From: a virus | Lineage: Duplodnaviria; Heunggongvirae; Uroviricota; Caudoviricetes | Reading direction: 5' to 3' (one strand) | Length of the DNA stretch: 64,000 nucleotides | Virus record (IMG/VR): IMGVR_UViG_3300031999_000011 | Shown: piece after piece, positions 7,915-61,086 of the stretch | How the letters are laid out: each line of letters opens with the position of its first letter | Numbering within the stretch: the stretch's first letter is position 1 | Notes under the pieces: generated by a model | Seen by the model: the letters and a program-made list of their open reading frames with translations, nothing else | Database searches by the model: none | Told to the model about the DNA's origin: nothing | Translations under genes and position numbers: made by a program

Positions 7915-7992
7915 ATTATTATTCCGTTAATTATATATTATTTATGAGCTACTTTAGATTGTTAATAATAACAATAAGGGTAGTTCACTATT

Positions 7993-8367: not shown

Positions 8368-8454
8368 TGTATTGCGGTGAGGGTCACTCATTTTCACAAC
8401 CAGATACTCTTAGGTTATAATTATATATTTAATATTTTTTAATTAAGCTGAAAT

Positions 8455-8670: not shown

Positions 8671-8763
8671 TATAATAATTATTCATTTTATTGAGGTTAC
8701 CTTATATTACCATTATAAAAAAATAATAAATAATATATTAACCACAAATAAGGAAGATGTATT

Positions 8764-9578: not shown

Positions 9579-9843
9579 AAATATATCATAATTGAAGATA
9601 CGTGGAGCTCAATGTCTAATTTCAACATAATGTAGGTATAGAACTAATATTTGATATCTCTAATAATATTAGTTGCATAATCATTATAAGCATGATATAA
9701 TGTACACATTAATTAAAGGTAAATAAAGTGAAAAACCCTGTTGCAAAATATAATATTAAGTATAACCGTTCTGTGATTCAAAAGGATCGTAAGAAGGATT
9801 ATTCTCGTAAAATCAAATATAAAAAATTTGAATAATATGATGT

Positions 9844-10059
9844 TTGAAAAACCTGAAAGATACTTGTACATTGGAAGAACGTAAGTCAGTATTACTACCT
9901 ATAGTTTTAAAGATTATACCGAGATTACTTGTAGTCGATATCTTAGAAGTTCAACCTATGTCATTAGCAGATGTTGATTATTCGTTTAATACTAAATATG
10001 ATAATATTCCGCGAACATATAAACAAGGTACTGTAATACATGACTTTGTGCGTGGATAG
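9844..10059 (+). CDS. hypothetical protein
   Basis: 71-aa ORF. Confidence 0.35.
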   Translation: MKNLKDTCTLEERKSVLLPIVLKIIPRLLVVDILEVQPMSLADVDYSFNTKYDNIPRTYKQGTVIHDFVRG

Positions 10060-10308
10060 ATGAGATATTATGGTACAGAATTCATTACAGAAGATTTGTG
10101 GTGGAAAATACAAATACGAGGATTATAATATGGAATTTATTACTCCCCTAATATGAAAATAATTAAACAAATAATTAAACAAATTACTAATAAGTTTAAA
10201 TATATTTGCTATTCAGTGTTAACGGTATCAACAACTGATGTTATAGTTATGTTAATTTTTTTGATATTAGTTGCTATTGATTTAATTTGGTGATGGTAAG
10301 GTATTAAA

Positions 10309-10608
10309 ATGATTATAGGTGATATTGTTACTATTATTGATCCAAAATTTAATACAATATGTGGTGAATTTAATACAGGTATAGTAATAAGTATTTCACC
10401 ATTTATGATTGTTTCAGAAAATGAATGGGGTGCTTTTATATGGATACCATTAGTAACTGATTGTGAAGTTTGTGGATATACTGATACTGAAACGTTAAAT
10501 AGGTGTATATCTTATATCCCTAAGTCAGAAGCGACTGTACTTGATGAATTAAAATCGAGTTTACAATATTATGATCAAAATGCCATGAGTCATTTATTAT
10601 CGAAATAA
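10309..10608 (+). CDS. hypothetical protein
   Basis: 99-aa ORF. Confidence 0.4.
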   Translation: MIIGDIVTIIDPKFNTICGEFNTGIVISISPFMIVSENEWGAFIWIPLVTDCEVCGYTDTETLNRCISYIPKSEATVLDELKSSLQYYDQNAMSHLLSK

Positions 10609-13035: not shown

Positions 13036-13110
13036 GACGTGTTGGTATAGTGGTTGTTGCCCTGGTCTGCAAAACCAGTGAGAAGGGTTCAATTCCCTTA
13101 CACGTCTCCA
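13036..13110 (+). tRNA. tRNA-Cys (GCA), encoded CCA
   Basis: Acceptor GACGTGT/ACACGTC; anticodon stem CTGGT/ACCAG with loop CTGCAAA; T-arm AAGGG-TTCAATT-CCCTT; 3' T-CCA. Confidence 0.8.
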
Positions 13111-13127
13111 AACAATAAGGGATTAAT

Positions 13128-13562
13128 ATGATACATTCAAAATCGACTACACTTTGTATTAAGAAAGCAAATAATGAAGTCACTATGACTACTAGACTTT
13201 CGCAAATTACTAGTCTGTTAACAGATTATAATATTGTTTACGGTCGTAAAACTTTACGAGAAATCAATGAAATTCTTCAAGGTATACCCGATAATGGATA
13301 TTTAGATTATGAAATATTTGAATCAGTTGAACCTATGAATATGGATTTACATTATCATGATGATCTTGAAGCCCGAGTTATTACAACCGGGTTAGGTACG
13401 TTTTTGTTTCCAAGTGATGATGCTGTAATTGAATTACAAGTATCAGCTGGTGATTATATTGTTATTCCAGGTAAAATGAAACATAGTTTTAAAACCCCTG
13501 GTAATCTTGCTGCCATTCGATTGTTTACAAATTATGATGGTTATATTGCTAATTATGTATAG
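13128..13562 (+). CDS. cupin-fold protein (two-motif cupin, acireductone-dioxygenase-like)
   Basis: HYHDDLEARVITTGLG (H.H...E......G) and GDYIVIPGKMKHSF (G.....P.G..H) cupin motifs. Confidence 0.55.
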   Translation: MIHSKSTTLCIKKANNEVTMTTRLSQITSLLTDYNIVYGRKTLREINEILQGIPDNGYLDYEIFESVEPMNMDLHYHDDLEARVITTGLGTFLFPSDDAVIELQVSAGDYIVIPGKMKHSFKTPGNLAAIRLFTNYDGYIANYV

Positions 13563-13666
13563 AGTTTATTTTGAACAAATAAATTAATATGGTAAAAAAA
13601 TTACAAATTTAAGTTGATTTATTGTTATAAATATACTACAATATAATATAATAAATTGACTTAGAG

Positions 13667-14107
13667 GTGTTTATGATCACAATATATCCATATAAGCTAC
13701 CTGGTAGCTCGTATATGATGATTGATAGAACAGGGATTGAAGTTCCAGGTCTTGATGTTTGGGTGTTTGATGATGAACAGCACGGATTACATCAAGAAGC
13801 TCTTATTTCTGGTACAGATGAAGTTATTGAATTTGTAACTAAAGACATACCAGATGCTGAAAAAGGCTTTAAATTAATATTCAGTGATGAAATGTTTGAA
13901 AATTATCAATTAGTTGGATATTGGTACAAAGCAGGTTATGCTAAGGGACCTTGGGCTAGTGATATTAAAGGTAATTGGTATCTTTGGAATTTACCATTTC
14001 AAAATAATCCAAAAATATATGGTTGGTTGTGCCCAGCGTTGTTTTTATATTTTGAAACTGCTCCATCAAAATTATATATCAGAGTTGAACCTATTAAACC
14101 TAAATAA
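13667..14107 (+). CDS. hypothetical protein
   Basis: 146-aa ORF. Confidence 0.5.
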   Translation: MFMITIYPYKLPGSSYMMIDRTGIEVPGLDVWVFDDEQHGLHQEALISGTDEVIEFVTKDIPDAEKGFKLIFSDEMFENYQLVGYWYKAGYAKGPWASDIKGNWYLWNLPFQNNPKIYGWLCPALFLYFETAPSKLYIRVEPIKPK

Positions 14108-14136
14108 TTAATATAAGTCAAATATAGGGATATAAT

Positions 14137-14667
14137 ATGAAACTTGATGAATTAATTGCACAAACATTACCATTACCATATACATGGATAAACGATCATA
14201 CTGCTACATTCGAATTTAAAGGTATTACCTTTATAATAGCATTAGCACCAACAGATCCTATCAAATTTGAAAAACAGAAAGATGGGTTGCGAGGCTTACA
14301 TATTGCATTCGGGATTGCAACACGACATGATTCAGACGGAACATATGATTTAAATACTGAATTAACCGGATTACATAATGCACGATTAGTTATTGCGACA
14401 GTAACATATGCTATTATTGATAAACTTAATAGTATATCATCATTGTATGATTTTATAGCTATAGTATCTAAAAATGATGCAGCGATGTCATCAAGAACTA
14501 AAATTTATCGAGCCGCGGTTATTGACGTAACAGATCATTTAACTCGTATGGGATATCAGTATACATATCAGTTAAAAAATGAGTTAGGAGCTGGTGTTTT
14601 CTTAATCTCAAAAATAGAATTAACACAATGGCAAGCTCAATTTATTGCTAAATTTCATTGTTCTTGA
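14137..14667 (+). CDS. hypothetical protein
   Basis: 176-aa ORF. Confidence 0.5.
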   Translation: MKLDELIAQTLPLPYTWINDHTATFEFKGITFIIALAPTDPIKFEKQKDGLRGLHIAFGIATRHDSDGTYDLNTELTGLHNARLVIATVTYAIIDKLNSISSLYDFIAIVSKNDAAMSSRTKIYRAAVIDVTDHLTRMGYQYTYQLKNELGAGVFLISKIELTQWQAQFIAKFHCS

Positions 14668-14704
14668 ATAATATAAGTAAATTAAAATGGATTTAAGAAA
14701 TTAA

Positions 14705-15049
14705 ATGCGAGTTTTAAAATTTGTTCAATTAGATGACGATTTAGTACCTATATCTGAAATAATTAATGTTGATATATCACAAATAATTACTGAAACTGTT
14801 TTAGTGTTATTAAAAAACGGTAAGATATATACCATCGTTGGACATCCGGCTCTTGAGATTATTTGGAGACTTAAACCTTCAGCATTAGAGGGAAATAGAT
14901 GTATAATATGGAAAAAACATATGTGGGCAGTACATAATATAATAGCTCATCCTCTTATGCAGATATTTGCTTGGTTTGGTGCGTATGATTTAGCTATTTG
15001 TATACATGATAGTACAATTCCAAAACCTATTGGATATAAAACATATTAA
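14705..15049 (+). CDS. hypothetical protein
   Basis: 114-aa ORF. Confidence 0.45.
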   Translation: MRVLKFVQLDDDLVPISEIINVDISQIITETVLVLLKNGKIYTIVGHPALEIIWRLKPSALEGNRCIIWKKHMWAVHNIIAHPLMQIFAWFGAYDLAICIHDSTIPKPIGYKTY

Positions 15050-15055
15050 CGTATT

Positions 15056-15445
15056 ATGAATAATGTATCACTATTAGTATTAATTGCATTGTTTATACTT
15101 AAACATTTTGTTATTGATTTTTTTTTAGAAACTCCTTATCAATCTAATAATAAACATATATTAGGTCATTTAGGAGGTATATTGCATGCACAGTTACATA
15201 GTTTTACATCTTGGGTAATATTAGGATTTACATTTAACTTCTTTATACCTATAGTTGTGGTAGCTGTGGTAGCTGAATTTTTTATTCATTATTTTATTGA
15301 TTTAGTTAAAACAAATTTATGTGTATTATATAAATGGCAGTATAATACTCAAAAAGGGTTTTGGTATATGTTAGGTGCTGATCAAGCACTTCATTATTTG
15401 ACGTATATTGCGATGATATATTATATTATTACACATATTAATTAA
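15056..15445 (+). CDS. integral membrane protein (tandem paralog A, DUF3307-like His-rich TM protein)
   Basis: LKHFVIDFFLETPYQSNNKHILGHLGGILHAQLHSFTSWVILGF; 3-4 predicted TM segments. Confidence 0.55.
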   Translation: MNNVSLLVLIALFILKHFVIDFFLETPYQSNNKHILGHLGGILHAQLHSFTSWVILGFTFNFFIPIVVVAVVAEFFIHYFIDLVKTNLCVLYKWQYNTQKGFWYMLGADQALHYLTYIAMIYYIITHIN

Positions 15446-15449
15446 AATT

Positions 15450-15821
15450 GTGAACACTACATTATTGATTGTAATCGGACTTTTTACGATTAAACACTTT
15501 ATTATGGATGTTTTGTGTCAAACACCATATCAATTTCAACATAAACATATATTAGGACATCCAGGTGGAATTATCCACACATCATTACACGCATTTACGT
15601 CTTGGTTAATACTAGGATTTATATTTGGGTTTTTAACTCATGTAGTTGTAATTGCCGTTATATTTGAGTTTTTTGCTCATTATTTTATAGATTTTTTTAA
15701 AAGAAATTTCACATTAATGCATAAATTAACTCCAGCTGATTTGAACTATTGGTACGTATCAATATTTGATCAATTATTACATTATTTAACATATTTTTGT
15801 ATGATTTATTATATAATATAG
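15450..15821 (+). CDS. integral membrane protein (tandem paralog B)
   Basis: IKHFIMDVLCQTPYQFQHKHILGHPGGIIHTSLHAFTSWLILGF; about 55% identity to the previous ORF. Confidence 0.55.
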   Translation: MNTTLLIVIGLFTIKHFIMDVLCQTPYQFQHKHILGHPGGIIHTSLHAFTSWLILGFIFGFLTHVVVIAVIFEFFAHYFIDFFKRNFTLMHKLTPADLNYWYVSIFDQLLHYLTYFCMIYYII

Positions 15822-15979
15822 TGGCATTATAATTAGAAATAATGTATAATGTACTTAGAATTTAAGTTATAACAATTTTATGAATTATTTAAAAACTTTT
15901 GAATATATAATATGTTTTGAAGATAATTTAATTTAATTTAATTTAATTATATAATATTTTAAATATTTGGAGATAAATT

Positions 15980-16249
15980 ATGAATTACTATAATGTTAGT
16001 TTAGCAATTAGCGGATATGCATTTATGCGACGTATCAGTTATGAGTTGTATGATACATGTAATAAACTAATTAATGATGCACGTTCCCGTTATCGTTATA
16101 CCACAATTATATTAAATGGTATGGAATATGATGTAATATCATATGGTTATGGTTTTTACATTGCAGTAGCTGAACCAACATATAACCACCGTTTATCAAA
16201 TGTTAATCGTAGCAGTATTGAGTGCAATCATATTGTGGCCGAACAATAA
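15980..16249 (+). CDS. hypothetical protein
   Basis: 89-aa ORF. Confidence 0.4.
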   Translation: MNYYNVSLAISGYAFMRRISYELYDTCNKLINDARSRYRYTTIILNGMEYDVISYGYGFYIAVAEPTYNHRLSNVNRSSIECNHIVAEQ

Positions 16250-16276
16250 AATAATTCAATATATGATGATACGATA

Positions 16277-16510
16277 ATGTCAATTCAAGAATTTTTAGAT
16301 AGTTGTAATGATACAGTTGATATTGATAATTCATTCACTTTAAGTTGGTCCAAAGAAGGTGTCGGATTTGGTGAGTTTCGGTTTTATAAAAGTGAAGACG
16401 AGGCAATTCATATTAATAATGAATGTATGGGAAAGAATTTTATTAAAAATGTATTATGTAATATGGTTGATATTGCTATTTTAGATGATCCCTACGAAAA
16501 AATTGAATAG
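16277..16510 (+). CDS. hypothetical protein
   Basis: 77-aa ORF. Confidence 0.4.
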   Translation: MSIQEFLDSCNDTVDIDNSFTLSWSKEGVGFGEFRFYKSEDEAIHINNECMGKNFIKNVLCNMVDIAILDDPYEKIE

Positions 16511-16526
16511 GTTAAAATAATTATTA

Positions 16527-16814
16527 ATGCGAAATATAAACAATATATCTGTTAAACTTGACAAAGAATGTTATTGTCCTGTATGTAATTGTAAAATCAA
16601 TGCAGCTACAGCATTAGATGGTAGTGGTGTAGTACCTAATGCTGGAGATGTAAGTATGTGTGTCATGTGTTCTGCATATTTAAAATATTCAGATGATTTA
16701 ACTCTCCGTGAGCTAACAGTTGATGAACTGGTTGATTTACCAGATGATATATTATATGTGCTAACTAAAACACGTAGTATATTTAAAAATATAAGTGGCA
16801 ATAAAAACTGTTAA
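16527..16814 (+). CDS. small Cys-rich (zinc-binding?) protein
   Basis: CYCPVCNC...CVMC. Confidence 0.4.
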   Translation: MRNINNISVKLDKECYCPVCNCKINAATALDGSGVVPNAGDVSMCVMCSAYLKYSDDLTLRELTVDELVDLPDDILYVLTKTRSIFKNISGNKNC

Positions 16815-16911
16815 TTGATAAGTTATATAGGAGAATAATTATGATTAAATTATAAATTGTCTACCATTGATAAATACAATTTTTTTCTAATTTCGTTTAA
16901 AGTGACTTAAA

Positions 16912-17556
16912 ATGTTTATATTTGATATATCTAGCCTCATAATAGGGGCAATGTTTGGCGGTATTTGGGCATCTATATTCTCAACTATGTTTATTGCTGC
17001 GGTAATTTTATTAACCGCTACTGATGAATTTTGGTGGTCATATGGATCATTATTATTGTATACTGTAATATTAGCAATATTTACACCAGCTAATCCGTTT
17101 TTATATATTTGGCACAATCCACTAAGCTCTATCGAAATTTTTATTGGATATTTTATAATAGGTGCCGTTTTTGCTTTATTAAAGTACTGGTCTTTTATAC
17201 AAAGGGTTGTACAGAAAATAAAAGATTTTAAGAAACAATTTATTATTGATAATAAACTTGAAATATCTACAATTGATGAAATACCAGAAGAGTATAAAAA
17301 ATTATGGAATAGTTATAAATCACAGAAGTTATCAAGTTCAGAATTACATAAAATTAATAATGGTTTACGTCCGAGTAATAACTCAGCACTTATTATGAAT
17401 TGGATTGCATGGTGGCCATTTGTGGCTGTAGGGTTATTTGTTGCAGATCCATTAAGAAAGTTGGTTAAAGCAATATACGAACATCTAGTTTCCACCTTTG
17501 GGAAAATGTATGAACATATTGTTACAAAAAACATCAATATGACAGACTTAAAATAA
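16912..17556 (+). CDS. integral membrane protein
   Basis: Five or more hydrophobic segments in the N-terminal 170 aa. Confidence 0.55.
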   Translation: MFIFDISSLIIGAMFGGIWASIFSTMFIAAVILLTATDEFWWSYGSLLLYTVILAIFTPANPFLYIWHNPLSSIEIFIGYFIIGAVFALLKYWSFIQRVVQKIKDFKKQFIIDNKLEISTIDEIPEEYKKLWNSYKSQKLSSSELHKINNGLRPSNNSALIMNWIAWWPFVAVGLFVADPLRKLVKAIYEHLVSTFGKMYEHIVTKNINMTDLK

Positions 17557-17573
17557 CATATGAGGAAGATTTA

Positions 17574-17744
17574 ATGTTAGAAGATATAGTGTTAGATATA
17601 TGTGGTGCACTTGGGTTAATTGTATGTGGTGTAATTGGTATTGGTGTGTTTGCAGCATGTATTGCATTCCCGTGGATCCTAGGTATTGTAGGTGCAATAT
17701 CAATTAATGCAGTGATAGAAAACGATGAATCATTAGTACTTTAA
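17574..17744 (+). CDS. small membrane protein (56 aa)
   Basis: SD GAGGAAG upstream; two hydrophobic helices with GxxxG-like spacing. Confidence 0.35.
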   Translation: MLEDIVLDICGALGLIVCGVIGIGVFAACIAFPWILGIVGAISINAVIENDESLVL

Positions 17745-17768
17745 TACTTAAGTTTATACGAATAAGTA

Positions 17769-17978
17769 ATGCAAAACGAATCAATTGATTATCCAGTAGC
17801 TTCAGCAAATAAACCATATCGAGTGACAGCATATCATTATACCCGTAATAATAACCGTAGTTTTATCGTTGGAGATTATCGCTGGTATTGGCAAGCTAAT
17901 TTAGTATCTTGGTGGTGGCATCAACTAGGATGGGGTTGTAACACATGGAAAAAATACAACAACATTTCTGAAGCTTAA
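17769..17978 (+). CDS. hypothetical Trp-rich protein
   Basis: 69-aa ORF. Confidence 0.35.
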   Translation: MQNESIDYPVASANKPYRVTAYHYTRNNNRSFIVGDYRWYWQANLVSWWWHQLGWGCNTWKKYNNISEA

Positions 17979-18082
17979 GATCTATTATTGATCAAATAAT
18001 AGGTCATCAAATTGCTGAAGAAATTTGGGGTGGCTCAATTACTCGTAAACCACGTATATTACCAACTATTAAGGTAACAAAA

Positions 18083-18478
18083 ATGGAACAATATTTGATA
18101 GATGATTATGGAGTTATTGAAAGTGAACAATATCTTCAACGAGTTGAAGATATAGAGCCTTATTTTGAAAATTGTAGTGAGGGTATGTTTGATTGTGGTC
18201 GAGGATATTATCAAGATGAAATTTACCGTTTTGTAAAAATTGGTGATAAGTTTTATAATGTACGCATTACAGCAGTAATATATAATCACAAGCAAGATCG
18301 TGGTGCTGAATTATACTATGTAAATTCAATTGCTGATGTTACATATAACGAAATTGATAAACCATTACCGATTCTAAAAAAATTGATTAATTTGGAGGTA
18401 GCAATATCTGATTCACGATTAGCAGAATTGAAAGAGTGGTTAGATACACACGGTGTAGAATATAGTAATTTTGCATAA
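18083..18478 (+). CDS. hypothetical protein
   Basis: 131-aa ORF. Confidence 0.5.
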   Translation: MEQYLIDDYGVIESEQYLQRVEDIEPYFENCSEGMFDCGRGYYQDEIYRFVKIGDKFYNVRITAVIYNHKQDRGAELYYVNSIADVTYNEIDKPLPILKKLINLEVAISDSRLAELKEWLDTHGVEYSNFA

Positions 18479-18627
18479 GATTTAATTTGATTTTTACTTA
18501 AAATGGATATATAATATCTTTATGTTGTTAAACAGGAGGAGTTATATGGATATAACATAGATTTAACTAAAATACATTTTGTCTTTTAGTTAAATTACAT
18601 GTGTCGAATTTGTATAAATAAAGAATT

Positions 18628-18702
18628 GGTAGATGAGCTAGTTTGGAATAGCGTGCGCCTGAAGAGCGTGAGAATAAGGTTCGAATCCTTGATCTACCAC
18701 CA
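18628..18702 (+). tRNA. tRNA-Phe (GAA), encoded CCA
   Basis: Acceptor GGTAGAT/ATCTACC; D-arm GCTA-GTTTGGAA-TAGC; anticodon loop CTGAAGA; T-loop TTCGAAT; A-CCA. Confidence 0.8.
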
Positions 18703-18710
18703 GAATTAAT

Positions 18711-18786
18711 TGGGCTATAGTGTAATTGGAAACACCTCACACTTTGACTGTGATATTGTTCGGTTCGAGTCCGGCTAGCCCTACCA
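18711..18786 (+). tRNA. tRNA-Gln (TTG), encoded CCA
   Basis: U1 start as in bacterial tRNA-Gln; D-arm GTGT-AATTGGAA-ACAC; anticodon stem TCACA/TGTGA with loop CTTTGAC; T-loop TTCGAGT; 1:72 U-U mismatch. Confidence 0.7.
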
Positions 18787-18858
18787 CTTTTAAAAAGATA
18801 AATAAGTAGATACACTAAAAGTAGTGGTTAAAATATAATATACGTAGGAGATTGTATA

Positions 18859-19245
18859 ATGATAAAATTAATATTTATAGCACTATTATGTGTTTTTGTT
18901 ACAGGTTGTGCATCAATGAGCAATTGGACGCCAACAGTTGATACATATAACGATAGACGTGCATCTCATATCCCGCAAGATCAAGCAGAGTGCAGACAAT
19001 TAGCATCTCAAGCATCTGGTGGAACAGTTAAAGAAACCTTTACCGGTGCAGGTGTAGGAGCATTAATAGGTGCAGCAGGTGGAGCAATCGCTGGAGCGTT
19101 TATCGGAAATCCAGCAACTGGTGCAGCGATTGGTGCTGCTGCAGGTGGTTTTGGTGGTGGTGCTGGATTGGGCTTCAACGCCGAGAACAATTATAAACAA
19201 TCATACAAAGTTTGTATGAGACACAGAGGTCATACAGTAATTTAG
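18859..19245 (+). CDS. OsmB/SlyB-like glycine-zipper outer-membrane lipoprotein
   Basis: Lipobox FVTGCAS; GAGVGALIGAAGGAIAGAFIGNPATGAAIGAAAGGFGGG glycine zipper; paralog of 33194..33673. Confidence 0.65.
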   Translation: MIKLIFIALLCVFVTGCASMSNWTPTVDTYNDRRASHIPQDQAECRQLASQASGGTVKETFTGAGVGALIGAAGGAIAGAFIGNPATGAAIGAAAGGFGGGAGLGFNAENNYKQSYKVCMRHRGHTVI

Positions 19246-19258
19246 TATGAAAAATTAT

Positions 19259-19336
19259 GCGCTCGTAGCTCAATTGGATTAGAGCATAGGATTTCTAATC
19301 CTATGGTTGGAGATTCGAATTCTCTCGAGCGTGCCA
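19259..19336 (+). tRNA. tRNA-Arg (TCT), encoded CCA
   Basis: Acceptor GCGCTCG/CGAGCGT; anticodon stem TAGGA/TCCTA with loop TTTCTAA; T-arm GGAGA-TTCGAAT-TCTCT; G-CCA. Confidence 0.8.
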
Positions 19337-19353
19337 AACATTAAAAGAATTAT

Positions 19354-19431
19354 GTCCATGTAGCTCAATTGGATTAGAGCATCGGTCTACGAAACCGAAG
19401 GTTATCCGTTCAAATCGGATCATGGATACCA
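19354..19431 (+). tRNA. tRNA-Arg (ACG), encoded CCA
   Basis: Acceptor GTCCATG/CATGGAT; anticodon stem TCGGT/ACCGA with loop CTACGAA; T-arm ATCCG-TTCAAAT-CGGAT; A-CCA. Confidence 0.8.
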
Positions 19432-19472
19432 AATGGTAAAAAAATGATATATAATATATCTTAATGAATAAT

Positions 19473-19548
19473 GCAGGTGTAGCTCAATGGGTAGAGCGCC
19501 GTCCTTCCAAGTCGGATGTTGCAGAATCGTCCTCTGTCACCTGCTCCA
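19473..19548 (+). tRNA. tRNA-Gly (TCC), encoded CCA; atypical T-loop ATCGTCC
   Basis: Acceptor GCAGGTG/CACCTGC; anticodon loop CTTCCAA; one mismatch in the anticodon stem; A54/U58 instead of T54/A58. Confidence 0.65.
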
Positions 19549-19555
19549 ATTTTAT

Positions 19556-19631
19556 GCTTCGTTAGCTCAATGGGTAGAGCACTGCATTGTCACTGCAGAG
19601 GCAGCGGGATCATAGCCCGCACGAGGCGCCA
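19556..19631 (+). tRNA. tRNA-Asp (GTC), encoded CCA; atypical T-loop ATCATAG
   Basis: Acceptor GCTTCGT/ACGAGGC; anticodon stem CTGCA/TGCAG with loop TTGTCAC; T-stem GCGGG/CCCGC; G-CCA. Confidence 0.7.
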
Positions 19632-19663
19632 AATATAATGTAATTATATCAATTAAATGATTT

Positions 19664-19885
19664 ATGAAATTTCACAAACTTGAAGTATACGTTTTCGATT
19701 TTGAAGAAGGTGATAATATTAAAGATATTATCGTTGAAATTGAACAAAATCGACATTTTAATATGGAAGTTAAAGCTCATCAAACAGTTGATATTGGTGA
19801 ATGGGATGATGATCATGAATTAAATCTAACACGCACTTCATTAGAACAGTTTAGAGCGTATTTTGAAAAGAATAATGTCGGGTGA
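19664..19885 (+). CDS. hypothetical protein
   Basis: 73-aa ORF lying between tRNA genes. Confidence 0.4.
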   Translation: MKFHKLEVYVFDFEEGDNIKDIIVEIEQNRHFNMEVKAHQTVDIGEWDDDHELNLTRTSLEQFRAYFEKNNVG

Positions 19886-19922
19886 TACTCATGTGAATCC
19901 GTGAGTCTGGTTATAATTAAAT

Positions 19923-20000
19923 GGGCCTGTATCCCAATTGGTAAGAGGACACCGGCTTAGACCCGGTGTGTTGGAGATTCGAATTCTCTCAGGCCTACCA
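19923..20000 (+). tRNA. tRNA with anticodon TAG (Leu, reads CUA) but class-I short variable loop; encoded CCA
   Basis: Acceptor GGGCCTG/CAGGCCT; 3-bp D-stem; anticodon stem ACCGG/CCGGT with loop CTTAGAC; variable GTGTT; T-arm GGAGA-TTCGAAT-TCTCT; A73-CCA. Confidence 0.6.
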
Positions 20001-22494: not shown

Positions 22495-23112
22495 GTGAGT
22501 AGTTCAAACAAAGATTGGTATTCAATAACTAATACATATTTAGATTGTCGACTCAATAGTATTTTTTTTCGTGTTAAAGAAAAATTTGGTGGATTATCAA
22601 ATATGTCGAACGATTTTCCAATTTGTGTTAATGGGTACAGTATAGCTAATAATGAGGCATTATATCAAGCATGTAGGTTTCCAGATTATCCTGAAATACA
22701 ACGAGAAATTATTATTCAACATAGTGGTATTGCAGCTAAAATGAAAAGCAAAAAATACCGGAAAGAGTTTACAAGAGTAGATTGGGATGATGTTCGAGTT
22801 GATATTATGCGTTTTTGTTTACAACTTAAACTTCAACAGTATGAAAAACCATTTGGTCTACTACTTATGAGTACTACTCAAACAGACATTGTTGAACGAT
22901 CAAGTAAAGATGCATTTTGGGGTGCTGTTTGGGACGATAACGCAGGCGCTTATGTTGGTCAAAACATACTAGGTAAGTTACTTATGGAGTTACGTGATTG
23001 GTTTTTTAATTGCGATATGAGTCTTAATGAACGTGGGTTATTTAGTTATAATTACATTGAACTGTTGAATGTTAACAATTTTTTGTTATTAGGAAATAAT
23101 ATAATTCTATGA
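22495..23112 (+). CDS. NADAR (YbiA-like, DUF1768) domain protein
   Basis: FGGLSNMSNDFPICVNGYSIANNEALYQACRF (LSNF...G..y.s.EH.yQa.KF) and DAFWGAV (D.yWG.G) NADAR signature motifs. Confidence 0.7.
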   Translation: MSSSNKDWYSITNTYLDCRLNSIFFRVKEKFGGLSNMSNDFPICVNGYSIANNEALYQACRFPDYPEIQREIIIQHSGIAAKMKSKKYRKEFTRVDWDDVRVDIMRFCLQLKLQQYEKPFGLLLMSTTQTDIVERSSKDAFWGAVWDDNAGAYVGQNILGKLLMELRDWFFNCDMSLNERGLFSYNYIELLNVNNFLLLGNNIIL

Positions 23113-23157
23113 ACAACTAAATAACATTTAAATAATCTATGCTAGGAGGAATAGCAC

Positions 23158-23355
23158 ATGTGTAAAAAATTACAAATTATAAGTTTAGTTGTAGTATATA
23201 GTATTTGGCCTCAGGTTACCAGTGCAGAAACAGGTGTTACACATGATAGAAATAAAACAGGTTCATATAAACGAATGGATCCGCTAACCTCTTTTTTTGG
23301 TGGACTCGGGTTAATTGGTATCGGTATGTGGATGAACCACAAAAATAAAGTTTAA
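23158..23355 (+). CDS. small secreted/membrane protein
   Basis: SD TAGGAGG upstream; signal-peptide-like N-terminus. Confidence 0.4.
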   Translation: MCKKLQIISLVVVYSIWPQVTSAETGVTHDRNKTGSYKRMDPLTSFFGGLGLIGIGMWMNHKNKV

Positions 23356-24509
23356 TAATATACTCGTTTATGTGGAGTTTTATATACTAACGCACCTTGT
23401 GCATTCGGTTCTTTTCGTGAATTATATAATTTATGAGGACAAAAACCAACCATTGATTTAGGATGTATTCGCATTTTATATAACGATATAATAGCATCAC
23501 TAAATGTATGTCCACTAACAACATTATCATCGATAAAAATTATATCTTTGTCTTGTAGTTGAGAAGCAATATGTTTTACAGCTAATTGAAAATTGTAAAA
23601 CCCTCTATCTCGATCTCCTCCTACTGGTGCTATTGCATTGTGAATACTAAATCTTGAATTTTCTAACCTATCAGTTGCTGTAGCTAATTCATTTTCAGCT
23701 TTAGTCAATTCTCTGTGAGTCATATCTAATTCTTCTATAGTATCAAAATCAGCATTATTTAATCTAACTATATGTTGTTTTAAGTGTGCAATAGTATTTT
23801 GTAATTCTTTTAACCGATTATGAGGACTAATTGATCTATCAGCTGCAGTATCATGTTCTTCACCTTTTACACCTCTAGGTTCATATATACCACCCGTATA
23901 CACATAGTTAGATAATCGAGGCCAATGGTTCTTCAAAAATGCACCATGTATAATATTAATATTACTCAAATATTCAGAAATTATATTAGCAAATTGTTTA
24001 ACTACAGGTGAACTTGATGATAATGTAACTAATACTACTTGGTTGTGTTCATCTGGGTGTATTTTATTATTGTGTAATCTTACAAACATTTTTTGAATTG
24101 CAGCATATTGTTTATCACGTGAAGTGCGTTGTTCAGGTTTTGGTAGTATATGTGATATTACTTTTTTTAATCCCACTCTTACAAATTTTTCAATTTCCGC
24201 ATCCGACATAGTATGATTCGTATTTCGTTTTTTAATAGCATCCATTAACCCAGTTGTATGTTCTTGATTTTCCCAACCTATAGGAGTTTTATCTAATGAA
24301 TATGCATGTAATACAGGAATACTTGCAGGTGGTTTGAGTAGGTTATATCTATTAAACAACATTAATTCTTCTTTTTGCAAATTGATTTGCACAGTATGAA
24401 TACCTGTTTTGTATTCTTTAGCATTTAATGTACCGGGTTCATCAAATTCATGAGCATATGTACCGTCTGCTAATTGCCGTTTAATCGTTTTAATTTCAGT
24501 TAATAACAT
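23352..24509 (-). CDS. phosphoribosyltransferase (type I PRTase) domain protein with inserted coiled-coil region
   Basis: C-terminal PRPP-binding loop IIFIDDNVVSGHTF; earlier VVLVTLSSSSPVV hood-like segment; minus strand, convergent with the NADAR gene. Confidence 0.6.
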   Translation of the reverse strand: MLLTEIKTIKRQLADGTYAHEFDEPGTLNAKEYKTGIHTVQINLQKEELMLFNRYNLLKPPASIPVLHAYSLDKTPIGWENQEHTTGLMDAIKKRNTNHTMSDAEIEKFVRVGLKKVISHILPKPEQRTSRDKQYAAIQKMFVRLHNNKIHPDEHNQVVLVTLSSSSPVVKQFANIISEYLSNINIIHGAFLKNHWPRLSNYVYTGGIYEPRGVKGEEHDTAADRSISPHNRLKELQNTIAHLKQHIVRLNNADFDTIEELDMTHRELTKAENELATATDRLENSRFSIHNAIAPVGGDRDRGFYNFQLAVKHIASQLQDKDIIFIDDNVVSGHTFSDAIISLYKMRIHPKSMVGFCPHKLYNSRKEPNAQGALVYKTPHKRVYY

Positions 24510-24610
24510 GTATATTTCTCGGTAAGTATGTATATTTATTTATTGCAAACTTGTGGAAAGTATATTATAATAAAATATATTATAATAAAATATTGTTAAT
24601 AAGGGGTATA

Positions 24611-24841
24611 ATGTTTTTCGTAACAACAGCTACAAATCATCCAACGGGTGCTGGTTATTTTGAAATCCATACTGATGATTATAGTGAGGCAAATAAAGCT
24701 TGTTTTGATACATTAGGTGAGAAATGGTGTTTCTTATATAATGATATTAACAAACTTCATGAATTGGATCGTATTAAATTAGGTGAAATTTATGTTGAAG
24801 AGGATGATCCAGAACACACAGGGTATATAATATTTACATAA
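24611..24841 (+). CDS. hypothetical protein
   Basis: 77-aa ORF (ATG at 24611 preferred over the longer track ORF). Confidence 0.4.
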   Translation: MFFVTTATNHPTGAGYFEIHTDDYSEANKACFDTLGEKWCFLYNDINKLHELDRIKLGEIYVEEDDPEHTGYIIFT

Positions 24842-24863
24842 TAATTTAATCAGGTACTTAATT

Positions 24864-25094
24864 ATGAATATAACTGAAGCAGTTGATAGAGCTATACAAG
24901 AATGTACACTAATAGATGCGTTATCTTGGATTTGTGTATGGGAAAGTGAGCGGGCAATACAACAAGCACGATTTAATTATGGATCTGGTTCCAATGGACA
25001 AGGATGGGATACTTGTTTTAAGTATTGTATATCTGAAGTAGTTAAAAGATACCAAGCTACTGATATAATTTTAAAAATAGATAATACTTGTTAG
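24864..25094 (+). CDS. hypothetical protein
   Basis: 76-aa ORF. Confidence 0.4.
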   Translation: MNITEAVDRAIQECTLIDALSWICVWESERAIQQARFNYGSGSNGQGWDTCFKYCISEVVKRYQATDIILKIDNTC

Positions 25095-25103
25095 TTATCT
25101 ACT

Positions 25104-25949
25104 ATGTTTGATTCACCAGTTGTACCAAAATCGTTTTTTATGAATGTTGGAGAGAACTCAGCAAATATTGCATTGAGTTTAACTGTAGCAAAAGAGAAAG
25201 TGATAGTACGTATAACAGGTGGTTGTGGATATATGAGTGTAGAAGATGCTAATGGGTTGTATGATCTATATAGTCAAGCGTTTAGTGGATTTAACGGTGT
25301 GATGTTGTTTGGTGGTACTCGTATGGTTAGCAGGATAGACCGAAATACGGTCATTCCAGGTATAACTGAAGTTGTTCCTCGTATTAAGCATGAAAATCCA
25401 GGTTGTGTTGTTTTAGGAGTTGTTCCAAGAACAGAGGATGTTAAACTGGATACAACTTATGGGTTTATTATTTCAGACGATAATAACCCGTGGATAACTA
25501 TTCCACATCCAGATCAAGATTTTTTTGTAATTGTACAACGTTCAGTAGATCAATCAGCTGATTGGAATGATGAATGGCAAGAATGTTATAATGTAACAAA
25601 ACGATTACGAACCTATTGTGATTGGACTTCATTATTAATTGCATATAATGGCGGTGGAGTTACTGAAAAAGAAATACTTACAATTGCAGCAGCTGGTTGG
25701 CCTGTATTGTTGGTTAATGGTGGAGGTAGGAAAACAGATGAGTATGCTGCAAATGAAGAATTTTTAGCAGCACATCCAAATGTAAGAGTATGTGAAAAAA
25801 ATGTAAGAGATTTTAGAAATACATTGATTGAAATGGGTATACTACTTGGGTTTAGGAAATCTTTAAATCTACAAGTAGTAAATGGTGGTAAAATTAATTT
25901 AAGAGAGTATATTAATTATGAACATAACAGCACAAACAGTAATAAATAA
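25104..25949 (+). CDS. LOG/SLOG-like Rossmann-fold protein (tandem paralog A)
   Basis: RITGGCGYMS (compare LOG GGGxxGxMG) and LLVNGGGRKTDE (compare LOG PGGxGTxxE). Confidence 0.55.
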   Translation: MFDSPVVPKSFFMNVGENSANIALSLTVAKEKVIVRITGGCGYMSVEDANGLYDLYSQAFSGFNGVMLFGGTRMVSRIDRNTVIPGITEVVPRIKHENPGCVVLGVVPRTEDVKLDTTYGFIISDDNNPWITIPHPDQDFFVIVQRSVDQSADWNDEWQECYNVTKRLRTYCDWTSLLIAYNGGGVTEKEILTIAAAGWPVLLVNGGGRKTDEYAANEEFLAAHPNVRVCEKNVRDFRNTLIEMGILLGFRKSLNLQVVNGGKINLREYINYEHNSTNSNK

Positions 25950-26694
25950 GTCGGGTAAAGTTGATTTATTTGTATCAGAAAGCAGTGGAGTTTTACCTGC
26001 TAATTATATGTTAGTGGCAACAAAAGCTAAGTCAAAAGTTGCACTACGTATTGCAGGTGGTTGTAAAAATATGAGTGAGCAAGATAAGTTAGATATGCTT
26101 GATTTTTTTGCTACCGCTTTAATTGGATATTCAGGTGTTCTTTTTTCTGGAGCGACTCGACAATTAACAGCTGATGGTTTACTGGATCCAATGGTGACTG
26201 ATGTTCCTGGTTATGTTGCTCAAAAAAATGATGGTATAATTGCATTAGGTACAGCACCACGCACTGATGCTTGGTCATTACAAGGTGAATCTGCATTTAT
26301 ATTAGATGGATATGGTACAAGACCAAACCCAACAATGGATGCTATTTTATTAGTACAAGATGGTCCTGATGCAACATTAGATTGGGATGGAGATGTACCA
26401 GTTTATTTGAAAATTATGGAATCTTGGAGAAGTTATGCTGGTTTTGAACATGTTGGTTTAATTTCGTGGAACGGTGGCGCAGTCACAGAAGCTGAATTTA
26501 GAGCTACTGCTAACCGTAAATGGCCTACCATATTAATACAAGGTTCTGGTCGTGCTACTGATGATGCTATTCAAGCAATAGTAGGAGAATTACCGGGTGC
26601 GTTACAAGGTGATCATGTATATGTTGTTGATAAGTCTGATCCATTAGCATTACGACAACTTTTAATCGATAATGGTTTTATATTAATTATTTAG
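25918..26694 (+). CDS. LOG/SLOG-like Rossmann-fold protein (tandem paralog B)
   Basis: RIAGGCKNMS and ILIQGSGRATDD; overlaps paralog A by 32 nt; same length and architecture. Confidence 0.55.
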   Translation: MNITAQTVINKSGKVDLFVSESSGVLPANYMLVATKAKSKVALRIAGGCKNMSEQDKLDMLDFFATALIGYSGVLFSGATRQLTADGLLDPMVTDVPGYVAQKNDGIIALGTAPRTDAWSLQGESAFILDGYGTRPNPTMDAILLVQDGPDATLDWDGDVPVYLKIMESWRSYAGFEHVGLISWNGGAVTEAEFRATANRKWPTILIQGSGRATDDAIQAIVGELPGALQGDHVYVVDKSDPLALRQLLIDNGFILII

Positions 26695-26711: not shown

Positions 26712-26747
26712 CACCTAAATATTGTACCATAGTACAATATTTAGGTG
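26712..26747. promoter_or_regulatory. perfect 36-bp palindrome (16-bp arms, 4-nt centre), candidate operator or RNA hairpin
   Basis: CACCTAAATATTGTAC-cata-GTACAATATTTAGGTG read directly; ends 7 nt before the next start codon. Confidence 0.45.
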
Positions 26748-28578: not shown

Positions 28579-29697
28579 TTAATCCCAAAAGTATACTAAA
28601 TTTGTCCCAATTACATAGAAATGATTATATTCAGTTGAGTGATGTCTAATATCTGTTGGATCAATAAACCCACCACCTTGAATATAATGCCCTTCTATAT
28701 TTGCTATCCATGATCCTTTATGCCAACCTATTCCTAAATTTATATCTTTAGTATATGTCTGTATTTGAGGTGCAGTGTTATCCGGTGAACGATATTGATT
28801 ATAATTTGCGCGTATTGAAAAATCTTCATTTATATTATATGTAATTGTTGGAGATATACCACAATATAATTTACTAAATTGAGTCCATCCTACATTTTTA
28901 CGTTTAACACATATTCCTTCTAAAGATGCTGTAAAATCATCTTGTACCCATTCTATACCAGTTCCAACTCGGCTACCTGCATTAAGTCCAATATCGATTG
29001 GTATCGGATTTGAGGTAATAATTTTAGATGTTTCCCAAAATGCAATAGTCCTTACACCATATTTTGGAAATTCATAACCGAGTGATACTAATTGGTGATC
29101 ACCGAATTTAGTTTTAATCGGTTTAGGTTTATTATCTTTTTCATCATCGTCACTGAATAGTGTTTGGGTATCAGTAAATTGTGTTGTTTGTTTATCTATA
29201 AGATATGATAATTTGAAGTTTTTATATTTTGCATCAAACCCCACACCTACCCCACTAGTATTAGATTCTTCAAATATATTCCAATATAAAGCTCGTGGTT
29301 GAAATACACCTTGTCTTGTTCTTGGATTTACTCTAGTAATATTATATAGTGTGGTATCATACCATATTTTACCACCTTTTAATGTTAATTGAAAATTATT
29401 AATAGGTATATTAGGAGTATACGCAATGTGATTGTATACCAATATATCATCTACAGTCGTACCATATTTGAATTGATTAAATACAACTAATCTATCTGTT
29501 AACTTAAGGTTAGTAATAAACCCTGCTTCTATTCCTGTTCCAGCTGCATCAAATTCAACATGCGATAATATATATCGTGCTCCTAAATATCCAGAAATCT
29601 GTAAATTTATCCCATTTGAAAACTCATAAGTTATAGCAAAAATCTGATTACTTGGTATAATTAAACAGATTAAATATACAATTTGTTTTATTGACAT
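28579..29697 (-). CDS. secreted protein, likely outer-membrane beta-barrel (porin-like)
   Basis: Signal peptide; alternating aromatic/Gly-rich beta-strand-like pattern; C-terminal ...NLVYFWD. Confidence 0.5.
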   Translation of the reverse strand: MSIKQIVYLICLIIPSNQIFAITYEFSNGINLQISGYLGARYILSHVEFDAAGTGIEAGFITNLKLTDRLVVFNQFKYGTTVDDILVYNHIAYTPNIPINNFQLTLKGGKIWYDTTLYNITRVNPRTRQGVFQPRALYWNIFEESNTSGVGVGFDAKYKNFKLSYLIDKQTTQFTDTQTLFSDDDEKDNKPKPIKTKFGDHQLVSLGYEFPKYGVRTIAFWETSKIITSNPIPIDIGLNAGSRVGTGIEWVQDDFTASLEGICVKRKNVGWTQFSKLYCGISPTITYNINEDFSIRANYNQYRSPDNTAPQIQTYTKDINLGIGWHKGSWIANIEGHYIQGGGFIDPTDIRHHSTEYNHFYVIGTNLVYFWD

Positions 29698-30143
29698 TGA
29701 GGTAGGTCATCACATATAACTATAGTTTTATTATATGTAATTAATTGATAATTAACATAACCTATCGCTCCATTGTGACTATGAACTAACTGTATCATAG
29801 CTGCATCATTCTGAACTTCTACTACATTTGTAGCTCTTGCAGTATAAGTATTTACTTCTAAATTATGTTTATAGTTATATATTGTCATGTTTAATACTGA
29901 CATTATAAAAAAGCGATGTTCTATAGAATCTATTGGTTTAATATACACAGTTATATTTTCTCTGTTGTTCCAATAAGTTTCTTTTCTAGTAAATATACGC
30001 TGTAACATTATTGTATTCATGAATACTGTATTCGGTAAATCATAGTTTGTAAAAATAATTTTTGGATCGTCAGTATCACTTTTTAACATTATAGGAATTC
30101 CACTTAATATAATCAATAATATATATTTGAATATTTTTATCAT
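29688..30143 (-). CDS. secreted periplasmic protein
   Basis: Signal peptide MIKIFKYILLIILSGIPIMLKS; 10-nt overlap with the downstream beta-barrel gene (operon). Confidence 0.5.
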   Translation of the reverse strand: MIKIFKYILLIILSGIPIMLKSDTDDPKIIFTNYDLPNTVFMNTIMLQRIFTRKETYWNNRENITVYIKPIDSIEHRFFIMSVLNMTIYNYKHNLEVNTYTARATNVVEVQNDAAMIQLVHSHNGAIGYVNYQLITYNKTIVICDDLPQCQ

Positions 30144-30166
30144 TTTATTATGTAAGGGGTGATTAG

Positions 30167-30589
30167 TTATTTTGTATTTCGATTTGATTGTGATGATCTA
30201 GTATATAATTGATTAACAGTGCTATCTAAGTCATCTATTTTATTATTTAATTCTTTTATTGTTGTTTGCATTTGAATTAGATGGTTGTCATACTTTGTAC
30301 GCAACTCTTTATCCTTAATATCTATATTATCTATATCTTTATGTATTTGTTCAATAATTAAATCTGTGCTAACTTTTTGTGTGTCAAGTTTACTAGTAAC
30401 GCCATTCCACGCAGCTAATATTCCTCCTCCTAGAGTAAAAATTGCAAATAGCACTGCCGCAGCTTGAGAAAAAGTAATTACTCCTCCTCCTGTAGTGTTA
30501 TTCTGGGGAGACTGATTTAACTTTGCTTCTTCTAAGAGCTGCAGTAGAAGTTCTGTTATTCTTTTTTCACTCGCGTTAGTCATAGTCAT
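30167..30589 (-). CDS. single-pass membrane protein with coiled coil (paralog of 26754..27176)
   Basis: TM AAAVLFAIFTLGGGILAAW; C-terminal LDSTVNQLYTRSSQ. Confidence 0.5.
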   Translation of the reverse strand: MTMTNASEKRITELLLQLLEEAKLNQSPQNNTTGGGVITFSQAAAVLFAIFTLGGGILAAWNGVTSKLDTQKVSTDLIIEQIHKDIDNIDIKDKELRTKYDNHLIQMQTTIKELNNKIDDLDSTVNQLYTRSSQSNRNTK

Positions 30590-61085: not shown

Positions 61086-61086
61086 T

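Follow-up and report, generated by a model that had tools for sequence, protein, structure and literature searches.

A NADAR gene, a PRTase-fold gene and a tandem TRPM-type SLOG pair of a large T4-like phage assort independently among related phages

A 4.2-kb locus (22495-26694) of a large T4-like phage, placed in an accessory region that is variable, carries a NADAR-domain gene, a PRTase-fold gene and two tandem SLOG genes that assort independently among related phages. Given this assortment, the four genes do not behave as one system or pathway. We regard the stretch, with confidence that is evenly balanced, as three separately inherited modules, each plausibly acting on the ribose-base bonds of NAD- or PRPP-derived molecules. 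The most unusual of the three is the SLOG pair, which elsewhere recurs inside operons for NAD recycling in ultra-small bacteria and archaea. Positions refer to the window, a 64,000-nt stretch of a phage contig of at least 120 kb, and the four ORFs of the locus listed in the initial annotation all lie where it had placed them.

Results

The modules of the locus are inherited separately

A related phage contig that is syntenic with the window (L028) keeps the NADAR gene (65% identity) and the PRTase gene but has neither the SLOG pair nor two of the small ORFs. The P0003 contig has the NADAR gene and the SLOG pair (70% identity) and is missing the PRTase gene. The SLOG pair of L045 (81% identity) has no NADAR or PRTase gene within 10 kb upstream, and NADAR is absent within 8 kb of the PRTase gene at eight IMG/VR loci and in L030. 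This distribution, together with the position of the PRTase gene on the opposite strand, argues against the single NAD+/ADP-ribose toolkit that had been proposed for the locus. A link to NAD or ADP-ribose chemistry stays plausible, since the only recurrent cellular context of the SLOG pair is a NAD salvage operon. The NADAR gene and the SLOG pair may be functionally coupled after all, because the window, the P0003 contig and one lineage of Saccharibacteria (L012, the same as L072) all have them as neighbors.

Smaller elements lie between and around the modules. A 65-aa ORF with a hydrophobic C-terminus (23158..23355, plus strand) separates the NADAR and PRTase genes; it has no Pfam match, and a homolog with 49% identity is found at the equivalent place in both L028 and L029. 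The divergent intergenic region between the PRTase gene (minus strand) and the SLOG cassette (plus strand), at 24510..24610, contains a tandem atatattataataaaat repeat and a promoter-like TTGCAA-17-TATAAT at 24543-24571, which is a consensus match only, promoter-like sites in this region being not above shuffled expectation. A 76-aa ORF (24611..24841, plus strand) opens the series of genes closed by the SLOG pair; it matches phrog_13997 (E = 3.9e-6) and has no Pfam match. Its ATG at 24611 is preceded by AAGGGG; a TTG start at 24551 is less likely, and an identical Logan contig carries the 76-aa gene call. A second 76-aa ORF (24864..25094, plus strand), directly upstream of SLOG-A, is missing from L028 along with the SLOG pair. 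In the short spacer after the SLOG-B stop codon, a hairpin with a perfect 16-bp stem, CACCTAAATATTGTAC-CATA-GTACAATATTTAGGTG (26712..26747), closes the cassette. Because its T-run is on the minus-strand side only, the hairpin does not qualify as a canonical plus-strand terminator.

SLOG-A and SLOG-B are a TRPM-type paralog pair

SLOG-A (281 aa, 25104..25949, plus strand) and SLOG-B (258 aa, 25918..26694, plus strand), the putative first and second subunits of an A/B pair, share a 32-nt overlap and are related as paralogs (32% identity, E = 2e-35). Both pass the 25.4-bit cut-off of PF18171 LSDAT_prok (27.7 and 27.0 bits, respectively), most of their homologs have a precomputed match to the same family, and their fold is bilobed and TRPM MHR1/2-like. 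The earlier description as tandem LOG/SLOG-like paralogs thus holds for paralogy and for the SLOG superfamily. Membership of the LOG family does not hold: no PF03641 match was returned for either protein, and they belong instead to the TRPM-type LSDAT family.

The LOG-type motif reads NGGGVTEKE in SLOG-A and NGGAVTEAE in SLOG-B, and 96-100% of the sequences compared (53 A and 42 B) retain its Glu (E190). This residue lines up with the Glu of TM1055 GGEIGTAIE, in an alignment whose E value is only 0.22. A GSGR Arg, present in both subunits, aligns with R358 of hsTRPM2, which binds the phosphates of ADPR (PMC6759353). Sequence similarity to TRPM2 and TM1055 is weak (E = 0.07-0.22), and these residue equivalences therefore lean on the fold match. 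SLOG-B keeps the motif residues in common with SLOG-A, and C41, E/D89 and E/D157 are further invariant polar residues of the two proteins. No biochemical data on LSDAT_prok proteins were found in the literature.

Compared with the LSDAT/TRPM MHR1/2 domains (PF18171 LSDAT_prok, PF18139 LSDAT_euk), the proteins described here are free-standing (about 260 aa), form an obligate ordered paralog pair rather than a channel domain, keep the LOG-type Glu that is absent from TRPM2, and are found in NAD salvage operons and a phage. From the LOG/PpnN (YgdH) nucleotide 5'-monophosphate phosphoribohydrolases they differ, besides the missing PF03641 match, in an extra lobe of ~90 residues as in TRPM, in NGG in place of PGG, and in an invariant Cys in the glycine loop.

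The SLOG pair recurs in NAD salvage operons

Homologs of the pair fell into 55 distinct lineages, of which 42 had enough sequence to read gene order and 37 had flanking sequence of 3 kb or more. B directly followed A on the same strand in 40 of the 42 testable lineages, which are mostly Patescibacteria; the B gene of an Uhrbacteria member is 49% identical to SLOG-B. A NAD salvage or NrtR gene was present within 6 kb in 15 of the 37 flanked lineages, the neighbors of the pair including NrtR, PncA, PncB, NadD/K and NadE. A tally of neighboring ORFs put NAD salvage families first, with NAPRTase and NUDIX/NrtR at the top. The operons of Patescibacteria and of an Aenigmatarchaeon have pncA on one side of the pair and nadD/K-pncB-nadE on the other, with nrtR, which presumably regulates these genes, close by. 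The NAD context is only partial, because 22 of the 37 lineages have no NAD gene nearby.

LOG enzymes are dimers, and by analogy SLOG-A and SLOG-B would be two subunits of one complex. We consider this complex most likely to be a heteromeric enzyme or binder for a NAD-derived nucleotide. The counterpart of TRPM2 R358 in the GSGR motif suggests that it may bind a phosphorylated ribonucleotide in a TRPM2-like pocket. Because both subunits keep the LOG-type Glu that TRPM2 has lost, it probably hydrolyses an N-glycosidic bond. In Patescibacteria and the Aenigmatarchaeon, the pair would supply the Preiss-Handler route by releasing nicotinamide or by recycling a pyridine or ADP-ribose nucleotide in some other way. 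During phage infection, such an activity could dismantle or re-route NAD-derived nucleotides, whether breakdown products or immune signals. A nicotinamide-releasing hydrolase would be of no obvious benefit to a phage.

Alternatively, the A/B complex could be a non-catalytic sponge or sensor for ADP-ribose-derived immune signals such as the cADPR isomers of Thoeris, in parallel with TRPM2 MHR1/2 and the SLOG domain of ThsA, which only bind ligand. We believe this to be unlikely. The LOG-type Glu and the invariant C41, E/D89 and E/D157 would be needless in a pure binder, and a place inside a cellular biosynthetic salvage operon points to an enzyme. In addition, no similar SLOG protein was found in BFVD or IMG/VR, and hence no widespread sponge.

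The NADAR protein is close to DS-32B

The NADAR-domain protein (205 aa, 22495..23112, plus strand) matches Pfam PF08719 far above the cut-off (79.8 vs 35.1 bits, E = 3.7e-22) over profile positions 2-160 of 163, which confirms its assignment; the motifs noted before are present in the variant forms GGLSNMS...EALYQACRF and KDAFWGAV. By sequence it is close to the clade of DS-32B, which partners and neutralises the PRTase toxin in DS-32: it is 49% identical to Pseudomonas aeruginosa DS-32B over the full length (E = 9e-65). On the DS-32B profile, NCBIfam NF053876 (DS32_2_antiphage), it reaches 212.9 bits, under the cut-off of 240, compared to 287.9 bits for P. aeruginosa DS-32B itself, and so stays below equivalog level.

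The protein is also related to DarG1 and to T4 AdfN (gp30.3), NADAR enzymes that reverse DarT1 guanine ADP-ribosylation. Like AdfN, it is a free-standing NADAR in a T4-like phage, and an orphan antitoxin-like role in counter-defence has published precedent (PMC11257639, PMC11543638). The match to the gp30.3 family PF08010 is only marginal (20.4 bits against a cut-off of 36, over 55 residues only). We find it likely, from these relationships, that the protein is an orphan N-glycosidase of antitoxin type whose substrates would be base adducts carrying ADP-ribosyl or phosphoribosyl groups. Judged from homology, it would most likely strip such adducts set on phage nucleic acid by host defence enzymes, and we read it as a putative counter-defence enzyme in the manner of T4 AdfN. 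DarG1 is the more distant relative and DS-32B the nearer one, so the adduct it targets may be a different one.

The PRTase-fold protein has an intact PRPP loop

The PRTase-fold protein (385 aa, 23352..24509, minus strand) has an intact PRPP-loop motif, IIFIDDNVVSGHT, at residues 322-334. The motif follows the type I pattern of a hydrophobic strand, two acidic residues and then S/T-G-x-T, and D327, D328 and N329 are invariant across the phage PRTase family, a small family restricted to T4-like phages. A variable coiled coil at about 196-305 appears to be inserted where the catalytic flexible loop is expected. The best Pfam match is PRTase-CE (PF24390), the DS-32A family, at 21.5 bits, below the threshold of 27. 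The PRTase fold with a long inserted coiled coil, as given in the initial annotation, is weakly supported, and the suggested Prs/Adps-like enzyme is not borne out, the match being limited to the PRPP loop. The protein is neither a DS-32 toxin nor a NARP enzyme.

DS-32 is a validated anti-phage system of a PRTase (DS-32A, PRTase-CE) and a NADAR protein (DS-32B) (DefensePredictor preprint, 10.1101/2025.01.08.631726). The window genes might be seen as a toxin-antitoxin pair like DS-32, carried by the phage and with the PRTase exchanged for a non-homologous one; here the PRTase would phosphoribosylate a target and NADAR would reverse this, for host takeover or for excluding competing phages. The closeness of the window NADAR to DS-32B, the PRTase-fold gene adjoining it, the two genes being near neighbors in L028 too, the sub-threshold PRTase-CE match of the PRTase family, and the role of PRTase-like proteins as toxic effectors in type III-A retrons are all in keeping with such a pair. 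However, the window PRTase showed no similarity to DS-32A by hhalign (probability 0.2%), phmmer or hmmsearch --max, and none of 7 PRTase family members matched the DS-32A profile NF053875 at E<=1. The arrangement also differs. In two genomes, L031 and L087, a PRTase-CE gene overlaps a downstream NADAR gene whose product is ~48% identical to the window NADAR, whereas the window genes are convergent around the 65-aa ORF, with no co-directional overlapping operon, and are carried by a phage rather than a bacterial defence island. With a GmrSD_N gene inserted between the two genes in L028, nine other PRTase loci without a nearby NADAR gene, and the P0003 contig carrying NADAR and no PRTase, we judge a DS-32-like pair to be quite improbable.

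The locus does not match a NARP pathway

The locus had been set apart from the NARP1 (Adps and Namat) and NARP2 (Nampt and Nmnat) gene sets, and this is borne out; NARP3, defined by PnuC and NadR (PMC13464706), is not matched either. What it has in common with these pathways is that the genes lie in a phage and seem to center on NAD. Two Pfam scans, covering the larger ORFs of the window, returned none of the NARP1 families (Prs N-terminal domain, NAPRTase/NAMPT) and none of Nampt, Nmnat, PnuC and NadR (NARP2 and NARP3), and nothing here is predicted to make NAD+. Elsewhere in the window, Sir2 is confirmed at 1408-2121 (PF02146, E = 1.6e-40). The two candidate ADP-ribosyltransferases, at 50309-50944 (minus strand) and 55767-56396 (plus strand), form a paralogous pair (34% identity, E = 6e-24) with no Pfam match to an ART family and no PDB match. 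A stand-alone AAA_28 P-loop kinase lies at 60558-61085, beside QueF.

That all four proteins make up one NARP-like variant pathway, for stepwise NAD+ regeneration or clearing of ADP-ribose signals, is very doubtful: the four families all work on ribose-base or ribose-phosphate chemistry and are packed into 4.2 kb, SLOG-NADAR neighborhoods recur and have been described as a trend in large phages (PMC9503650) and Sir2 is in the window, but the modules assort independently, the PRTase gene is convergent and matches Prs in the PRPP loop only, the scans returned no Prs/Adps, Namat, Nampt, Nmnat, NadR or PnuC, and the SLOG cassette apparently has its own upstream region and closing hairpin.

Discussion

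Phage SLOG, NADAR, Macro and Nudix proteins were proposed by Iyer et al. 2022 to process ADP-ribose derivatives, and this general framing is thus not new (PMC9503650). As in that study, SLOG and NADAR genes occur here together in a large phage genome. The viral SLOGs described there were mainly YpsA-like and a few LOG-like, with LSDAT unmentioned, and the tandem A/B LSDAT pair and its NAD-salvage-operon context are undescribed there (PMC9503650).

We tentatively entertain the possibility that SLOG-A/SLOG-B is an unrecognised NAD-metabolism enzyme of NrtR salvage operons that was captured by phage and is an enzymatic ancestor of the TRPM ADP-ribose sensor. If so, the pair might, for example, fill the place of a missing nucleosidase, one that frees nicotinamide from NMN or from a related nucleotide of pyridine or ADP-ribose. 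Patescibacteria and DPANN archaea would be its original holders, and, once captured by T4-like phages, the enzyme would represent a new NAD-centred device for counter-defence or takeover. In animals, the domain with which TRPM channels sense ADP-ribose would then descend from such an enzyme.

Modular composition of the cluster

The four larger cluster ORFs of the initial annotation were present, and the NADAR assignment (22495-23112, plus strand) was firm, with a PF08719 match at E 3.7e-22. That annotation had read NADAR, the PRTase-fold protein (23352-24509, minus strand) and the two SLOG paralogs (SLOG-A, 25104-25949, and SLOG-B, 25918-26694, both plus strand) as one NAD+/ADP-ribose toolkit, and related contigs separated these genes. 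The PRTase fold is a putative assignment. The phage contig L028 was syntenic with the window, gene by gene, over window positions 18-36 kb. It kept NADAR (65% identity), the 65-aa ORF that follows it (23158..23355 in the window) and the PRTase (67%), without the two 76-aa ORFs (24611..24841 and 24864..25094) and without both SLOG genes. The related phage contig carrying protein P0003 held NADAR, a GmrSD_N gene and the SLOG pair (70% identity) without the PRTase, and at another locus, L045, the SLOG pair (81% identity) stood in an unrelated 10-kb context. The PRTase occurred without a nearby NADAR at eight IMG/VR loci and in L030, a phage-like contig. In the window itself, the PRTase gene lies on the strand opposite to its neighbours; the plus-strand run ending in the SLOG pair follows a divergent intergenic region and closes at a hairpin with a perfect 16-bp stem. 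The cluster consists of three modules rather than forming one system. The observations of the initial annotation largely stood, and its unifying interpretation survived in part, in that NADAR is close to DS-32B and the SLOG pair is tied to NAD salvage; the single system did not.

The GmrSD_N gene of L028 was inserted between NADAR and the PRTase. This DUF262 gene directly follows NADAR on two related phage contigs (L028, 11031-11888, and the P0003 contig) and is absent from the window. A PAAR-motif ORF was also found at the same spot on the P0003 contig. The spot after NADAR is an insertion hotspot. A tandem direct repeat ('atatattataataaaat' x2) lies at 24562-24595, in the divergent region that separates the PRTase from the SLOG genes, and overlaps a promoter-like -10 element; promoter-like sites were no more numerous than in shuffled controls.

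The same annotation had suggested an undescribed variant of the NARP phage NAD+ reconstitution pathways. When the larger window ORFs were scanned with Pfam, none matched the Prs, NAMPT/NAPRTase, NMNAT, NadR, PnuC, Nudix or Macro families; all that came up was a stand-alone AAA_28 kinase, beside QueF. No window product is predicted to make NAD+, and for this reason the NARP frame was dropped.

NADAR and the DS-32 defence system

The E. coli defence system DS-32, validated in the DefensePredictor preprint, consists of two genes, one for a PRTase (DS-32A) and one for a NADAR (DS-32B), and was interpreted there as a probable toxin-antitoxin pair whose partner is swapped relative to DarTG (10.1101/2025.01.08.631726). 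The window NADAR scored 212.9 bits against the NCBIfam model 'DS32_2, NADAR family anti-phage protein' (cut-off 240), and PADLOC returned only a weak match, PDC-M42C. We found the DS-32-type arrangement in two genomes, P. aeruginosa and Burkholderia anthina, as a PRTase-CE gene overlapping a downstream 218-aa NADAR. The Pseudomonas pair exceeded both DS-32 cut-offs, and its NADAR was 49% identical to that of the window (E 9e-65), which by sequence comparison puts the window protein close to the DS-32B clade. T4 gp30.3 (AdfN) is a NADAR that removes DarT1 adducts from phage DNA (PMC11257639; PMC11543638). Because the phage PRTase shows no sequence similarity to DS-32A and AdfN offers a precedent, the simplest reading is that the window NADAR would be an orphan, antitoxin-like counter-defence enzyme, perhaps directed at DS-32-type toxins.

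The PRTase-fold protein

The PRTase family is tiny, with 7 matches among 5.8 billion clustered proteins and 77 representatives at E<=1e-3 among 1.84 billion, and all of the loci examined were phage-like or viral. In L030 (5935-9804), binned with Methylotenera, the homolog lies 1.5 kb downstream of the gene for the anti-CBASS protein Acb1 and immediately precedes one for a ClpP-like protease; a second locus, L036, also has the PRTase adjoining ClpP. In the IMG/VR locus L037 the homolog is near topoisomerase II subunits, an SPFH protein and Gp23. PADLOC gave only a weak match to PRTase_III-A. Identity with DS-32A was rejected on sequence grounds, with no similarity by hhalign, phmmer or unfiltered hmmsearch, as was membership of Prs/Adps or ComF, the match being confined to the PRPP loop.

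PRTase-like proteins are toxic effectors in DS-32 (10.1101/2025.01.08.631726) and in type III-A retrons, and for this reason we keep, as a minority possibility, the reading that the PRTase is a phage weapon and NADAR its immunity.

Distribution and gene order of the SLOG pair

SLOG-A and SLOG-B are LSDAT-type (PF18171) paralogs. Among 5.8 billion proteins searched, 115 were SLOG-A homologs, those with names coming from Patescibacteria, an Aenigmatarchaeon and Melainabacteria, and scans located 19 loci in GTDB genomes and 43 in JGI metagenomes. Pattern scans of IMG/VR, with the alignment and with a single protein, found no relative of the pair, though divergent copies can escape such scans. LSDAT-like proteins were likewise not found in BFVD by fold search at E<=1e-3, nor among 50,697 phage records by tblastn of SLOG-A. 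In a survey of NAD/ADPr domains of viruses, the viral SLOGs are characterised as mostly YpsA-like, and LSDAT goes unmentioned (PMC9503650).

Window gene A was orthologous to the first gene of the pair at other loci and window gene B to the second, at ~50% identity each compared to ~32% between A and B. Once near-identical loci were collapsed, 55 lineages remained; 42 of them had sufficient downstream sequence, and in 40 of these B directly followed A on the same strand. L022 (Bdellovibrionota) is one of the two exceptions, in which two divergent SLOG-A-like genes lie on opposite strands at 7577-10604 with no A-B tandem, one of them possibly being part of a 705-aa ORF.

Association with NAD salvage

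A NAD salvage or NrtR gene was found within 6 kb of the SLOG pair in 15 of 37 lineages with >=3 kb of flank, a lower bound since detection was by tblastn with a single query set. The fullest locus, in Uhrbacteria, reads nrtR, pncA, slogA, slogB, a nadD/nadK-like fusion, pncB, a 211-aa unknown, a radical SAM gene and nadE, and the archaeal locus has the order slogA, slogB, pncB, rSAM, nadE. When 91 neighbouring ORFs were tallied by Pfam family, those of NAD salvage were the commonest, with NAPRTase and NUDIX/NrtR in front at five members apiece (L016, which uses genetic code 25, was excluded from the tally). Phages have captured a conserved LSDAT A/B gene pair that is tied to NAD salvage.

Between pncB and nadE, the 211-aa protein (no Pfam match) and the radical SAM enzyme were kept in L001 (12547-14226) and also in L004, L007 and L067, and they may be further components of the Patescibacteria NAD pathway.

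LSDAT was reportedly defined by Burroughs et al. in 2015. In the literature covered here, outside of which lies that defining paper, which may mention tandem prokaryotic LSDAT genes, we found nothing that connects LSDAT/SLOG proteins with operons of NrtR or nicotinamidase, and NMN nucleosidase had no gene assigned to it.

Predicted activity of the SLOG pair

Residues common to the A and B subfamilies were R36, G39-G40-C41, G70-x-T72-R73, T88-E/D89, W154 and E/D157, followed by N182-G183-G184, T187, E190, G206-S-G-R209 and D212. In profile alignments R209 coincided with R358 of human TRPM2, and E190 with the Glu of the TM1055 LOG-type motif, where TRPM2 has Thr. TRPM2 R358 touches both phosphates of ADP-ribose at the MHR1/2 site (PMC6759353). 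As the genes are strictly paired, ordered and often overlapping, both predicted pockets are intact, the pair lies inside a salvage operon and the LOG glutamate is retained, the sequence features point to a putative heteromeric nucleotide hydrolase; a pure binder seems less likely. LOG enzymes are dimers, with which the hydrolase reading fits.

Most economically, such a hydrolase would in cells release nicotinamide, or recycle a pyridine/ADP-ribose nucleotide, upstream of PncA and PncB, and NMN made by the NAD-dependent ligase is a candidate substrate. For the phage, this chemistry could serve to destroy immune signals or breakdown products that derive from NAD, or else the complex could work as a sponge.

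Phage genome setting

The window is AT-rich (GC ~30%), with short, tightly spaced ORFs mostly on the plus strand. A metagenome contig was 99.97% identical to part of it, the identical NADAR was present on contigs up to 120 kb, and no close relative was found among 50,697 phage records by megablast of the region or by tblastn of SLOG-A and the PRTase. Related contigs bore T4 hallmarks, with Gp23 and a T4 Y07B family match on one and topoisomerase II subunits and Gp23 on another, and we took the window to belong to a large T4-like phage.

Eight tRNA genes (Cys, Phe, Gln, Arg x2, Gly, Asp, Leu) lie at 13036-20000, six of them grouped at 18.6-20.0 kb. The window also encodes a CCA-adding tRNA nucleotidyltransferase (3209-4387) and, by Pfam scan, a Thg1-like tRNA-His guanylyltransferase (57260-57985; also in L030), PTH2 and a sigma-70-like protein. 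A formyltransferase-like protein, the AAA_28 P-loop kinase (NadR-kinase-type family) and the QueF nitrile reductase follow in succession at 60034-61989, an arrangement suggestive of a cluster for 7-deazaguanine or nucleotide modification. An SPFH/Band 7 protein (38811-39716; L037 also has SPFH near its PRTase homolog) and a member of the fatty-acid hydroxylase family that carries a DUF2934 tail (46483-47430) are uncommon cargo for a phage. Three minus-strand genes at 28579-30589 (372, 151 and 140 aa), with no Pfam match, were kept as a block in L028 at 45-54% identity, and the ~370-aa gene of this block was in three tandem copies on the P0003 contig.

The Sir2 proposed at 1.4 kb was borne out as a full-length sirtuin (1408-2121; PF02146, E 1.6e-40), and the 285-aa ORF immediately 3' of it (2122-2979) had no Pfam match. 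The two ADP-ribosyltransferase candidates, 50309-50944 (minus strand) and 55767-56396 (plus strand), gave no ART-family Pfam match and no PDB match; they are mutual paralogs (34% identity, E 6e-24) with the common motif pattern CKPxL...LYRG...FR...T/S...P.G..F/YIW.P.

Implications

In the accessory region of a phage, genes that share a theme can form a tidy-looking cluster and yet be juxtaposed, separately mobile modules. NADAR is a candidate phage counter-measure to the newly validated DS-32 and could expose what the DS-32 PRTase modifies. LSDAT_prok, a Pfam family of no known function, gains a testable hypothesis, that of a two-subunit NAD-linked nucleotide hydrolase or binder, in the context of the minimal NAD salvage operons of ultra-small bacteria together with a viral copy, and the ADP-ribose-binding domain of TRPM channels is hereby tied to prokaryotic NAD metabolism.
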